This document shows, in pieces, positions 73 to 19,640 of a DNA stretch of 20,000 nt. Under the pieces are notes generated by a model, which ran no database searches, was not told the origin of the DNA, and was given only the letters and a program-made list of their open reading frames with translations. Within the stretch, counting starts at the first letter, position 1. Each line of letters opens with the position of its first letter. Position numbers and translations under genes: made by a program. Source of the stretch: Catajapyx aquilonaris. Lineage: Eukaryota. The DNA lies in the NCBI GenBank assembly GCA_000934665.2, contig KZ538507.1, forward strand, positions 45,602-65,601. The letters run 5' to 3'.

Positions 73-579
73 AGGGACACTCCACTCAAAATGCAAGTTG
101 GGCTCTAAAAATCGGGCAAGAAATCCTGATTCCGAGTGTATCAGCAGTTTTTCTGAGAGACGAACGGTAAGGCCAGAGCGAGCCGTCAAAGTTAGGCAAT
201 TCGAATCTGGCGCAAAACAGCAGCGCCTCCTCCGGGACTGCCCGGGACTGGGCAGAAATTTGGATATTCTTGCGCCATCTTGATCCACGCCATGGTCCGC
301 GCCATCTTTGGTCCGTCCCACAGGTTTATCCCGCCACCTCTTGACCCGACCCGACTTTCAGCACGGTATCACTTTCGCCTAGTGCCTGGTGGCGGCGCTC
401 ACGGCGGTGGCGGACTGGGCTGGCGGGGCAGCTCATTAGCAGACGACGCAAATTCTGAGTCTTTAACGCCTCGTCCTGGCTTTTCTGTTCCGCGTAGAAA
501 AAAACCGATTGCACCTTCGGAATCAGGATTTTTTGCCCGATTTTTAGAGCCCAACTTGCATTTTGAGTGGAGTGTCCCT
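73..579. mobile_element. Non-autonomous DNA transposon (MITE), Kolobok/T2-like
   Basis: Near-perfect ~63-bp TIRs AGGGACACTCCACTCAAAATGCAAGTTGGGCTCTAAAAATCGGGCAA..., flanked by TTAA at 69-72 and 580-583. AGG termini with a TTAA target are characteristic of Kolobok/T2. GC- and CpG-rich interior. Confidence 0.85.
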
Positions 580-1507
580 TTAACAGAGATTTTACCTGCG
601 AACATTTTTTTTTTTTTAATACCCTTATCTCCATATGATATTACTGTGGACTAATCAAAATTAGGTTCTGATAATACTATGTCTACATCTAATTGAAACA
701 TTTAAAATAAAAGCATAAATATGTAACACCACATATTCTCCAATTATTTACCGATTTGAAGTGAATGATGTGGCTTCATATTCTCTTCTGTGCAAAATTA
801 ACTCCCAGCCATTAGTGCTCTTTTGGCTGCTCCAACATATACATGAACTGGCACCCTGGTAAGCAATTCCATTTCTTTCCCAGTCAACCATTCTTCAGCC
901 ACCAGAAGCAACAATGAATTGTTGCCATAAAAAGAAAAAATTCAAACATCCCAATGCAGCACATTTTGTGTGCAACTGCCATGTTCATATCTCAAATGTC
1001 CCAACTGGTGACATGGGCCATGCTTGCACAGAGTGAATACCCTGAACCATATAAATAACAAATATATAACATATAACATATAACATTTGACAAATATAGT
1101 ACAGTACAGTGTGCCATCAAGAGCCTTTTAGCACAAAAGCACACTATCTCTTGTTAGAGCTGATATTAAATGGCCAATAATAACAAAAATAAAACATGTA
1201 ACATACCATATACCATGTGTTGTGTGTTATACTACAATATCACCCATGAAAATTCAAGGACAACCCTAGAGGCTCACTTCTGTGTCACTACAATGTGCTA
1301 ACAATAGTAATTACTTTTGCTGGTATCCCCTGGTGTAGTACTGCAGAAGTTAAGTCTAGATGCCTCATTATGGAAATGGGAGTGCATTATGGTGAAATGT
1401 AAAGGAGCCTACAGAAGGGCAACACTAACTATCTTCATCTCCTGTAAATAAGTACAGTGCATCATGTGGAAAGTCCTGAGAATTGTCAAGTAGCTTTAAA
1501 AACTGTA

Positions 1508-6827: not shown

Positions 6828-6998
6828 CTGCCATATTAACATAAAAATCAGGGCAAATGAAACATACCAAAAAAATTGGTGGTAATGGAGGGGCGTAAAA
6901 ACGTACCTCCTTACTACATTTTTTTCTCTGATGCAATTGTCAAGAAAAAGAGCAACACTATTAAGCCCTGAGAACATCAGTGAATGTTAAATATTTAC

Positions 6999-7135
6999 CT
7001 TATCGTCAAATGCTTCTCGACTCCACTTAGGAACTTTCTCTTCCTTTTTCTTCTTACTTCCACTCACAGCTGTCTTGCTCTCCTCAATCTTCTTTTCGAT
7101 TAACTGCACATTCCAATCACTCTTCTCTATTTTAC
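6999..7135 (-). CDS. MICAL: MICAL exon: CH-LIM linker
   Basis: 137 nt, phase 1/0. Acceptor ttttctgtcaccag|GT, donor AAG|gtaaat. Encodes (G)KIEKSDWNVQLIEKKIEESKTAVSGSKKKKEEKVPKWSREAFDDK. Confidence 0.9.
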
Positions 7136-15858: not shown

Positions 15859-16582
15859 TATATTGTAACCCATATTAATGATCATATTGGGTACACCCTT
15901 CGGGTCAGGTTGCACCATTGATGGTAACTTGATGACTGAGCTGCATGAATGGTGCTACCTTGCCTGTCACTTTTTCTAAATAGAACCACTGAGTAGCTGC
16001 AAATAGCCTCCTTCAACATTGTTACGGTATCGCTAAAAATTCATAAGTGCCATCTGGCCCCTGAATTGCTGGTTACTGCATTTGAGCCTTAGACCAAATC
16101 ATATGTAACACCAGTAAATGAATACCGGTGACACCAAGTAGACAAAGTCCGGAGCAGCAGCTATGCCATTTTCAATGGATTTCAGGCAGACTCAAAGAAA
16201 GGGGTGTTGTTTAATTTTATAATATAATCAATAAATAAATAGCAAATCAGTCACTTAGTAAGTACCAAATCTGACTTATAGATATCACAGTAGAAACCAG
16301 TAGTGCATGATCATCAATCAAGTGACCAATATGCAACTCTTAAAAATTGGATTCCAATTAACATTGCTAAAAAAATATCACAAATTCTACACTCACCCCC
16401 CACCCCTCATGTGGCCACTTGAAAGATGAAAAAATGACAAAATTATACACACAGATTTTCACGGATCAATAGGAAAATACACATTCGCTTTTGCTTTTTA
16501 TATGATCAGCCCCAAACTTAAAAAATTAACACAGAACTTTGCAAACCATCCCTTGCTTGCATAGTTTCAAACAAATACTTAC

Positions 16583-16705
16583 CAGTTTCGGATGTTTCAC
16601 ATGTGGAATTTCTCCACGGAACACATCATATATTTGGGAAAGGTAGGACACCATCGTCAACTTGTCTACCACTTCACACTCTGCCATTTCTTTTCCTGTC
16701 ATTAC
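16583..16705 (-). CDS. MICAL: MICAL exon: CH domain, second part
   Basis: 123 nt, phase 0/0. Acceptor ttttgttttag|GTA, donor CTG|gtaagt. Encodes VMTGKEMAECEVVDKLTMVSYLSQIYDVFRGEIPHVKHPKL, the CH C-terminal helix. Confidence 0.95.
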
Positions 16706-16774
16706 CTAAAACAAAATAATAACTGCAGAATTCAAGACAATAGAGTAAGGTGTAACACTTGGAAGTCAACTTAC

Positions 16775-17007
16775 AGGTGGTATCCCCATCTCAGTCTCAA
16801 GGACGTCAAAAGCTAGCTGATTGTTGCCTGCTGCATCATCCCTATCCAGCTCATGGAAATTTATGAGGTCCGGTCGAAAATAATGAATGAGGGCACATAT
16901 AGCAAGACCACTGCGAAGGGATGCTGCCACATCGTCAAGAACCAGGTCATAGCCAGACACCTGCTTCTGCAGCCATGCCAGAAGAGTCTCTGGGTTGACT
17001 AGAGAAT
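16775..17007 (-). CDS. MICAL: MICAL exon: calponin-homology (CH) domain, first part
   Basis: 233 nt, phase 1/0. Pyrimidine-rich acceptor tttttctgaag|AT, donor CCT|gtaagt. Encodes DSLVNPETLLAWLQKQV...SLRSGLAICALIHYFRPDLINFHEL...NNQLAFDVLETEMGIPP, a type-2 CH domain. Confidence 0.96.
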
Positions 17008-17126
17008 CTTCAGAAAAATAAGAGAGGAGAGGAAAACTGATGAATCGGACTGACAGTTTCATAATGGCATATTAATGTATGCCATTCGACACACCAAAGG
17101 ATAAGAAATTTTCTAGTAGTAGAGTA

Positions 17127-17807
17127 TTTTCACACTTAAGCCGCTTGTTTTTAAGCATATACTTTGGAACAGCTACTTTTGAGGTGAAGAAAAATTTACA
17201 GGGTGGCCACGAAGAAAGGGGCACATGTTTGATAAGCAATCAGTCACCTTCCTAGCCACCAGAGGATCAACTTATGTAGAGGAGTCATTATGTCTGGGCA
17301 GCCTCATTACTGAGATACACTCTTTAGCGATTTTTGCCTAATCGCTCCTTCTGACTTTCAAATAGAATTTTCTGGTGTAACTAGCCAAAGAGGCCTTACC
17401 ACCTGTGGGCAACAAACCAACAAAGTCCGGCCCCCAGACCTTCCAGAGCCTTCTGACTGGGGGAGGGTTCGATGGGTGGCCTAACCGACAGGATATTTTG
17501 TACTACATGTTTGCGGCCAATTATCTCAGTAATGCGGCGGCCAGACATAATGACTCCTATACTTAAATCGATCCTCTGGTGGCTAGGAAGGCAGTCATAT
17601 ACGTCGGGGCACTGAGTTCAGATACACCCTGTATACATGTTTTCTTGTAGTTTTATTTGCCTTAATGGAATTTTCTTATTGACTGATTCCTCATCAAACA
17701 TGTGCCCCTCTCTTCTCTCTCTCGTGGCCACCCTGTATATTTTTCTTCACCTCAAAAGTAGCTGTTCCAAAGTATATGCTTAAAAACAAGCAACACAAGT
17801 GTGAAAA
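17127..17807. repeat. Long inverted repeat extending outside the MITE
   Basis: 17143-17212 and 17722-17791 are reverse complements with one mismatch over 70 bp, plus TTTTCACACTT / AAGTGTGAAAA further out. Confidence 0.92.
17199..17735. mobile_element. Tc1/mariner-type palindromic MITE (CAGGGTG termini)
   Basis: TA|CAGGGTGGCCACGA...TCGTGGCCACCCTG|TA; inner inverted arms 17248-17318 and 17522-17591; an extra CACCCTG|TA terminus at about 17625-17633. Confidence 0.8.
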
Positions 17808-18087
17808 AATGTCTAACCATTCTTAGAATCCATTTGGAATACACATTGTGAGAAGTGCAACCTGGTCTGAGAAAAAAATAGAATCATAGTGAAAATTATT
17901 ATTATTAGAGCAACTTCTCTTTAACTATAGGTGGCTATGCAAAAGAAATTAATAAGACTCTTTGCTGTAACACTATTTTGAAAACTGTCTCAAAGACAAA
18001 CCCCAGTTGAACAATAAACCATTGTAACTGTTACAGAAAATGTAGCTACCGAAGCTACAGAATGTAACACTCATGGCAAACACTTAC

Positions 18088-18093
18088 CTTTCC
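18088..18093 (-). CDS. MICAL: Candidate 6-nt microexon of MICAL (GGAAAG, adds Gly-Lys)
   Basis: Minus strand reads ...ttttttcttttcaatgtgttcctgctatcaccttcatatctacag|GGAAAG|gtaagtg. Consensus donor, CAG acceptor, phase 1/1, frame-preserving. Confidence 0.55.
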
Positions 18094-18485
18094 CTGTAGA
18101 TATGAAGGTGATAGCAGGAACACATTGAAAAGAAAAAATGAATGTTTCAATAATATTTACTGGCAGTGGGGGCTGCATGCAAGAAGTTGGGAGGTATTAG
18201 AAATAAGGATGTGTTGAAGTTGAACAGTCTTACAAAATTTCTGTATTTTTCAATCTCAAGGCATGGCAGGCAGGAAAAAAACATATATTATTTCTGCTCT
18301 AATGGTCATGTGACTAATAATTATCAGCGGCTCTTATCCCAAGATCTTGCTCTCACAAAATGAATCCTAGATCTCAAGGCAACTAAGTATGACAAGGGCC
18401 AGTAACTTGAATTCAATTCTCTGTAGTCACAGGTACACATTAGGCTTTTTAAAAATATAATGCCAGAGCATCTATCCAGGCTCAC

Positions 18486-18570
18486 CTCTTCTCCTCTTCT
18501 TCTTGACTGGCTCAATTACTTGTGGCTTCTCAATAGCCTCAGGGTTGTCACTATTATACAGTGACCTCAT
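18486..18570 (-). CDS. MICAL: MICAL exon: MO-CH linker with basic cluster
   Basis: 85 nt, phase 0/1. Acceptor tattgcag|ATG, donor AGAG|gtgagc. Encodes MRSLYNSDNPEAIEKPQVIEPVKKKRRR; phases fit both neighbouring exons. Confidence 0.88.
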
Positions 18571-18659
18571 CTGCAATACAAGGCACCAGCAATCAGCACA
18601 TTAATCTTGGACCATATGCAACAAAACCAATACTGAACATAATTTTTCATTTACTTTAC

Positions 18660-18905
18660 CTGAAATGAAAGTACACTCCTGACATTGAGATTGGGATATC
18701 TGGTATGGGGATCTAGTGTATATGCAGCATGCTCCTTATTCAGATTCTCCGGGGTCGTCTGTGCCAGGAGACGATATATGGACTCACGCTCAGCCAGCAC
18801 TTCCAGTGGTGTCATCTTCCCTGAAGACCAGCTTCTTACCATCCAGCATGAATCCATGGAACTAAGAAAGCCTCTGGCACATCCACTCCCAGTGGGCCAG
18901 AATGG
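18660..18905 (-). CDS. MICAL: MICAL exon (first in window): C-terminal part of the flavoprotein monooxygenase domain
   Basis: 246 nt, phase 0/0. Acceptor tcctctttag|CCA, donor CAG|gtaaag. Translates [26 protein letters not shown]...[19 protein letters not shown]...[13 protein letters not shown], recognisable as the end of the MICAL MO domain. Confidence 0.96.
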
Positions 18906-19094
18906 CTAAAGAGGACAAATAAAATTTGCTTATCAAATCCACCAAACAAAATACTTCTTGAACATTCCAGACATTCTGAGCCTGAAACTTTCCTTGCCTG
19001 TTCCCAACTAGCAACCACCTGTCTGGTACTTTTCTTGTTGGTCTTGTCAAACCCCTACTTAATAATAATAACTTATATATAATAATAATATATA

Positions 19095-19640
19095 CAGGGT
19101 GAAGGGAAAGGACCTCATGCATTAAGCATAGTAAAAAGGATCCCAAAATTGATTTCTTCGTGCTTCGGATATGTTGCTGGGGGTGGCGAGTAGGCCCCGT
19201 GTGCAAAAGGAGCGGCCTCGATTGGCCGCGGTTAGGCTTGTAGGCAGGTCACGTGACCTAGCCTTTCAAAAATCACCACGCCCAAACGACTTTGATTTAA
19301 GAAATTATTTTTGGCATGGAGGTATATCTAGCCTAGTACTATCTAACGCTACAATAGAATTCCATCTAGCCCGTCTCTGATTGGCCGAAATAGACGAGTG
19401 AAAAAGAAGTGGCTTTTTTACCAATTTAAAGCTGGCCGCCCAACATGACGTATACCTTATTTGACAGCTCCAAAGAAGTTTTACACCATATTAAAAAATC
19501 AGACAATTCTATCCGTGGACCGCTATATTTTATTTAGTAACAACCAAACACCACCCTTATAATTCACACAAATGTACTACTACCCACTTTTATACTATTT
19601 TGAGCCATTCTTGGAGTTCATGAATCTAAAAATTACATGA
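19095..19640. mobile_element. Probable Tc1/mariner-type element fragment (CAGGGTG terminus after a TA run)
   Basis: TATATA|CAGGGTG start with a CpG-rich interior. No clear right TIR, so the right boundary is approximate. Confidence 0.4.

Follow-up and report, generated by a model that had tools for sequence, protein, structure and literature searches.

In Catajapyx aquilonaris, Mical, whose product dismantles actin, contains a 6-nt exon that is spliced in frame into the message, where it lies between the exons for the linker and for the CH domain. It was found in a 20,000-nt stretch of contig KZ538507.1 (positions 45,602-65,601 of the forward strand; hereafter the window, to which all coordinates refer) and is recovered exactly in a spliced contig from a public run. 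We would give about even odds to the reading that this is a genuine internal exon included in most Mical transcripts, either constitutively or at high inclusion, and acting as a broadly used spacer; broad use looks more likely than use confined to nerve cells. As a class, microexons are well known, and what is new here is a transcript-supported instance at the junction of the monooxygenase (MO) and CH domains of Mical. A literature search found no earlier report of a microexon at this junction, and it is absent from the 11 Mical rows of the PMC8797185 supplement and the two Mical rows of the PMC8042270 supplement. The coordinates of the features are collected in Table 1.

Table 1. Features of the Mical microexon and its surroundings, in window coordinates
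Feature	Positions	Strand	Basis
Exon A: end of monooxygenase domain	18660..18905	-	tblastn with named Mical proteins, 74-79% identity; X1 joint
Exon B, 85 nt: MO-CH linker, basic cluster at end; donor GAG/GTGAGC	18486..18570	-	sequence, X1
TGCATG, upstream of AG-free zone	18176..18181	-	sequence
Microexon 3' splice-site region: CAG, 64-nt AG-free zone, TGC, T-rich tract	18094..18159	-	sequence
Microexon, 6 nt, phase 1-1, adds Gly-Lys	18088..18093	-	sequence; inclusion in spliced X1 contig
Consensus 5' splice site of microexon, GTAAGT after AAG	18082..18087	-	sequence
Nested inverted-repeat (foldback/MITE-like) element, ~680 nt, in intron downstream of microexon	17127..17807		fold, X1 cover
Exon C: first part of CH domain, AAG acceptor	16775..17007	-	Pfam PF00307, X1
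Exon D: rest of CH domain	16583..16705	-	sequence, X1, tblastn

By its sequence matches the host gene is Mical, with a monooxygenase followed by CH and LIM domains, and tblastn and Pfam agree with the original prediction, which had placed the exon between the MO linker and the CH domain of this gene. The CH domain of exon C scores 52.9 bits against PF00307 (cut-off 26) and the LIM domain lies above the Pfam cut-off of PF00412, whilst the end of the monooxygenase was matched by tblastn, the 82-aa piece by itself having no Pfam match. Nine exons, from 18905 to 6999, splice to a stop-free frame of 497 aa, and the gene extends past the window. In a quick tree the Catajapyx protein fell outside 18 neopteran insect rows (support 97) and was joined to those rows only at 88, a placement that probably marks it as the protein of a non-neopteran hexapod. 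Two further observations concern the more distal exons. A 255-nt in-frame exon with a GTCAGT donor and basic runs lies in the CH-LIM linker (12966-12712, minus strand) and was matched in tblastn by none of the insect proteins that were tried. For the exon that follows 6999 (6999-7135, 6830-6610, minus strand), the tblastn match begins at 6830, and no clear pyrimidine-AG acceptor is found just upstream.

The microexon itself (18093-18088, minus strand) splits the 1478-nt intron between exons B and C into 392 and 1080 nt. The predicted arrangement, tctacag-GGAAAG-gtaagtg, is present in full on the minus strand, with its CAG acceptor, six nucleotides and consensus donor; this short segment with canonical AG and GT flanks falls within the definition of a microexon as an internal exon of at most 30 nt. 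The donor, AAG/GTAAGT, is the only AG/GTAAGT on the minus strand of the window, and the hexamer GGAAAG has no second copy in the 1478-nt intron. The claim of a phase-1 intron with a Gly-Lys insert and no frameshift also holds, since the flanking exons (18570-18486 and 17007-16775) join in phase 1 and the inclusion and skip forms are both stop-free. Gly-Lys is placed directly after the basic cluster that ends the MO-CH linker. The classical monopartite nuclear localization signal has the consensus K-K/R-x-K/R, which is present in both forms, and the basic cluster is conserved across arthropods, although a literature search turned up no paper about it; an effect of the microexon on nuclear import is possible but unsupported, because the cluster is unchanged by it.

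The intron downstream of the microexon also holds a nested inverted repeat (Table 1), with outer arms of 86 nt at 94% identity and an RNA fold z of -25, over which cover in run X1 (see below) is deep and divergent, with many divergent copies. Folding of this element would reduce the effective length of the intron from 1080 to ~400 nt. Elsewhere, a long GC-rich inverted-repeat element was seen by eye near the start of the window (86-654, arms at ~85-200 and 470-580), and a termite-like Mical locus (L002, positions 1-750) carries a tandem array of ~30-nt units in the intron upstream of its CH exon.

Evidence that the microexon is used comes from X1, one public run that covers the stretch, with no recorded kind, library or tissue, aligned over 16000-19500. 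The original prediction called for a search in RNA for the junction of exon B, GGAAAG and exon C, and an exact match exists in a spliced contig of 1021 nt (depth 4.33), which has no other letters over three aligned pieces and a fourth at 16582-16701. The contig is spliced at all three of its listed joints; two of these are the GT-AG introns A-B and C-D, which is why we regard it as spliced. As aligned, the third joint runs from 17010 to 18485 with two letters between, so that in the output of the read aligner it looked like a 1474-nt skip, non-canonical and with two stray letters. When rebuilt, this joint equals the inclusion form exactly and differs from the skip form and from both 6-nt site shifts, thereby placing the microexon between its two flanking exons in this one contig. 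At the joint, chance accounts for one matching base at the donor and for three at the acceptor, the latter because the acceptor of the CH exon ends in AAG (17008-17010, minus strand), identical to the last three bases of the microexon; it is this identity that leads aligners to misplace the junction. No joint that skips the microexon (17007-18486) is among the X1 joints listed for 16000-19500, in what is one low-depth contig set; contigs drop rare forms, and a single junction-crossing contig is compatible with some skipping. X1 cover is absent over 17755-18105, which is evidence neither way. A second X1 contig, of 312 nt at depth 2.9, is unspliced over 18201-18512 and runs from exon B into 285 nt of the intron upstream of the microexon, reflecting either slow splicing of that intron or DNA.

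Taken without the transcript, the motif would be only suggestive. When the 20-kb strand was resampled 300 times under a first-order Markov model, YAG-N6-GTAAG occurred at least once in 37% of the resamplings and any frame-preserving YAG...GTAAGT of 3-27 nt in 72%; the exact version with the perfect donor occurred in 1%, a pattern picked post hoc, after the site had been seen. The motif by itself is thus not convincing, because look-alikes are common by chance and the rare version was chosen afterwards, and it is the transcript that decides. The same figures of 37-72%, together with support from a single low-depth contig, are what would favour a non-functional origin, with a chance motif and a contig that represents rare mis-splicing or an assembly artefact. 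We regard this as very improbable: the contig, free of other letters, carries in full a hexamer that is unique in the intron and lies between a YAG and a perfect donor, a rare form is what contigs would lose, and even a retrocopy presupposes a spliced mRNA. Other ways of producing the joint were rejected. An alternative donor or acceptor 6 nt away is ruled out, as neither equals the joint of the contig, and a zero-length recursive site is ruled out since exon B followed by the microexon creates no AG/GT.

An exon of this size would be too short for U2AF/U2 and U1 to sit side by side. Recognition may instead go through its perfect U1 site, with a long AG-free zone that places the pyrimidine tract and the branch point 35-50 nt upstream. 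The AG-free zone of 64 nt is the longest among the nine acceptors of the gene (15-52 nt in the other eight), and the pyrimidine content at -50 to -21 (0.77) is the highest of the nine. The upstream elements that had been predicted, namely a TGC, a T-rich tract set further back and TGCATG, were all found: the TGC starts 23 nt upstream of the microexon (18116-18114), the T-rich tract spans about -45 to -34 (18138-18127) and TGCATG, which we take to be an Rbfox-type motif, stands at -88 (18176-18181). The A at 18139 is a possible, suboptimal branch point. No YTRAY branch motif and no CUAAY lie inside the AG-free zone, the nearest CTAAT being at -104, beyond two AGs, and inspection of the 100 nt upstream of the microexon found no UCUC or CUCU.

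These signals bear on a doubtful, though the strongest, alternative to broad inclusion, in which the microexon would be a neural cassette dependent on the eMIC domain (Srrm234), skipped by default and included in neurons, with X1 rich in nervous tissue. The acceptor architecture of eMIC targets has been described as largely eMIC-specific (PMC8797185), and the acceptor here appears partly eMIC-like, with a long AG-exclusion zone, top-ranking pyrimidine content and a UGC between the pyrimidine tract and the AG. Of the eMIC-type combination of pyrimidine tract, UCUC and strong CUAAY branch point, however, the tract alone is present, the other two being absent from the 100 nt upstream and from the AG-free zone, respectively. 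Neither is the TGC distinctive. It is present at -23 as predicted, and some three quarters of human SRRM4 targets have a UGC, which is not strictly required (bioRxiv 2024.09.17.613571), but a TGC within 25 nt of the acceptor also occurs at 5/8 other acceptors of the gene and at 35% by chance. The donor argues both ways. The view that eMIC microexons have strong donors is borne out for mammalian SRRM4 targets (bioRxiv 2024.09.17.613571) and fails for fly eMIC exons, which have weak 5' splice sites (PMC8797185); judged by eye, the consensus donor here fits the mammalian exons and not those of the fly. Further points in favour of a neural cassette are the eMIC-sensitive 33-nt exon that Drosophila Mical has elsewhere in the gene (PMC8797185 Table S2), the finding that, from one insect to another, neural exons turn up repeatedly in the same genes (bioRxiv 2026.09.05.749416), and the unspliced contig of exon B and intron, which fits the order reported for SRRM4 exons, whose downstream intron is spliced first (PMC10250204), this being one record that could be DNA. 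Against it stands the lack of a skip form among the X1 joints listed. Control in another tissue or stage (e.g. muscle), possibly through Rbfox at the upstream TGCATG, seems a good deal less probable again. The motif at -88 and the optional Lycorma exon at this junction (see below) are consistent with it; set against them, the motif occurs 13 times on the minus strand, so that a single copy has a chance of ~6% per 100 nt and its predicted role as an Rbfox site is weakened accordingly, and no TGCATG is found in the first 60 nt downstream of the microexon.

Comparison with relatives indicates that the position of the intron is ancient: ant and termite-like loci and that of another insect share the boundary, and four vertebrate-like loci have the acceptor at the same position. 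In most arthropod Mical models the basic cluster runs straight into the CH exon. The models also point to repeated lengthening of the MO-CH junction in insects. In Schistocerca americana and S. piceifrons (XP_046997628.1, XP_046997629.1, XP_047116333.1-335.1), 5/5 full-length models from the two species have two extra residues at the same site as here, after the basic cluster and before the Asp with which the CH exon opens. The second residue is likewise Lys, whereas the insert is Val-Lys instead of Gly-Lys and is known from protein models, so that either a microexon or a tandem acceptor could encode it; a donor ending in AAG gives Lys in that frame by itself, and orthology with the microexon is no more than a possibility. 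Lycorma delicatula has an optional in-frame insert of 8 aa at this junction in 3/4 models (X1, X3 and X4: XP_075230339.1, 342.1 and 343.1), encoded by 24 nt of unrelated sequence, with the skip form annotated as model X2 (340.1); the Asp-to-Tyr change at the end of the insert, worked out from codons, is better explained by a cassette exon than by an acceptor shift. In bees, ants, wasps and sawflies the same junction carries ~4 extra residues, which lengthen the linker as here, but in two ant loci (L003 and L005) a 184-nt intron is followed by a CH exon with a fixed extension at its 5' end, which encodes this insert, and an orthologous microexon is thereby ruled out. One model of Ixodes persulcatus has a single extra Ala at the junction, possibly from a tandem acceptor.

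No insert was seen in the gene models of Periplaneta (7/7), a Thrips cluster (12/12), Nasonia (8/8 full-length), Orussus (4/4) or Procambarus (3/3), in which 6-nt exons can be missed, and no Gly-Lys insert is in the junction tally of the pattern-matching proteins retrieved; 24 proteins without the junction pattern, mostly fragments, were left unscored. A metagenome scan gave 44 loci from 151 pattern matches, many of them unrelated CH proteins that were not used. No candidate 6-nt exon was found in five termite-like loci (L001, L002, L004, L006 and L007; 0.45-2.2 kb, stopping short of exon B), or in the 68-nt intron of a further locus (L008).

The length of the linker gives a measure of what the two residues might do. 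From the RYPN motif to the first tryptophan of the CH domain, the Catajapyx protein has 54 aa without the microexon and 56 aa with it, as compared with 57-65 aa in the named insects listed, 54-55 in spiders, 53 in a MICAL1-like protein, 56 in chicken MICAL2 and 57 in a MICAL3-like protein. A span of 54 aa or less was found in only 5/229 proteins with the basic cluster, a redundant set. The short form is nonetheless probably functional, because spiders manage with spans of 54-55 aa. In MICAL1 the linker has no density in crystal and cryo-EM structures and is unstructured and variable in sequence (PMC4792234, PMC11557892). According to modelling, MO and CH cannot come into their tightest contact in cis with the linker that MICAL-1 has, which is too short, but might do so in MICAL-2, MICAL-3 and fly Mical, whose linkers have 4-11 more residues (PMC4792234). 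The microexon would lengthen a flexible linker that is otherwise among the shortest in arthropods, and Gly-Lys may be a spacer that slightly alters the way in which the CH domain seats against the enzyme domain, and not an on/off switch. It is also conceivable, although we think it unlikely, that the end of the linker is a length switch, adjusted repeatedly by insect lineages at one ancient intron (+2, +8, +4 and +1 aa), with a neuron-enriched 6-nt exon in Catajapyx that lengthens the span from 53-54 aa, like that of MICAL1, to 56-57 aa, like that of MICAL2/3, and so alters the stimulation of the enzyme by F-actin. This idea arises because the modelling, performed on another protein, suggests that tight intramolecular MO-CH contact comes within reach in the 56-57 aa range (PMC4792234); if the Schistocerca insert were orthologous, such an exon would perhaps date from early insects.

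Broad inclusion remains the reading that we prefer. The single contig that crosses the junction has the exon, and no skip joint is listed; of two forms it is the commoner that a contig retains, and in most samples an exon confined to neurons would presumably be in the minority. Such an exon would rarely be the sole contig form unless the sample were neural, and broad inclusion is therefore favoured over a neural cassette. In addition, the Schistocerca insert is in every model and ends in Lys, the ant insert is fixed, the 54-aa span without the exon is both rare and short in a linker that is unstructured and poorly conserved (PMC4792234, PMC11557892), and 128/411 internal microexons of Drosophila are constitutive (PMC8042270). 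On the other side, the other 283/411 fly microexons are alternative (PMC8042270), the Lycorma exon at the same junction is optional, spiders have spans of 54-55 aa, and the transcript evidence is one contig at depth 4.33, from a run with no recorded tissue or library, where contigs lose rare forms. A 6-nt exon is of the kind that aligners misplace, and Mical gene models of other arthropods may lack such an exon. Should the microexon prove constitutive, it would amount to a correction of the annotation and to one case among several in which the linker has grown at the same intron; if the length switch were real, two residues would change the F-actin stimulation of the enzyme. A natural two-residue variant also bears on the way in which the CH domain links the binding of F-actin to the enzyme activity of Mical.

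With the neural microexons governed by eMIC (Srrm234) and SRRM3/4 (PMC8797185; bioRxiv 2024.09.17.613571) the Catajapyx exon shares a very short, frame-preserving length, a long AG-free zone, a set-back pyrimidine tract, UGC before the AG and a strong upstream donor. It differs from them in having no UCUC and no strong CUAAY in the zone, and its donor is mammal-like and not fly-like; the likeness is one of sequence features. Within Mical itself, the Drosophila microexons of 27 and 30 nt (PMC8042270) are ruled out as orthologues by their location at the far 5' end. Another short exon of the same gene is the 33-nt, eMIC-sensitive Drosophila exon DmeEX0005126 (PMC8797185 Table S2), which is ruled out as an orthologue by its position: it lies 3' of a 5090-nt exon, near the C-terminal end, and hence, to judge from its coordinates, away from the MO-CH junction at which the Catajapyx microexon is spliced.
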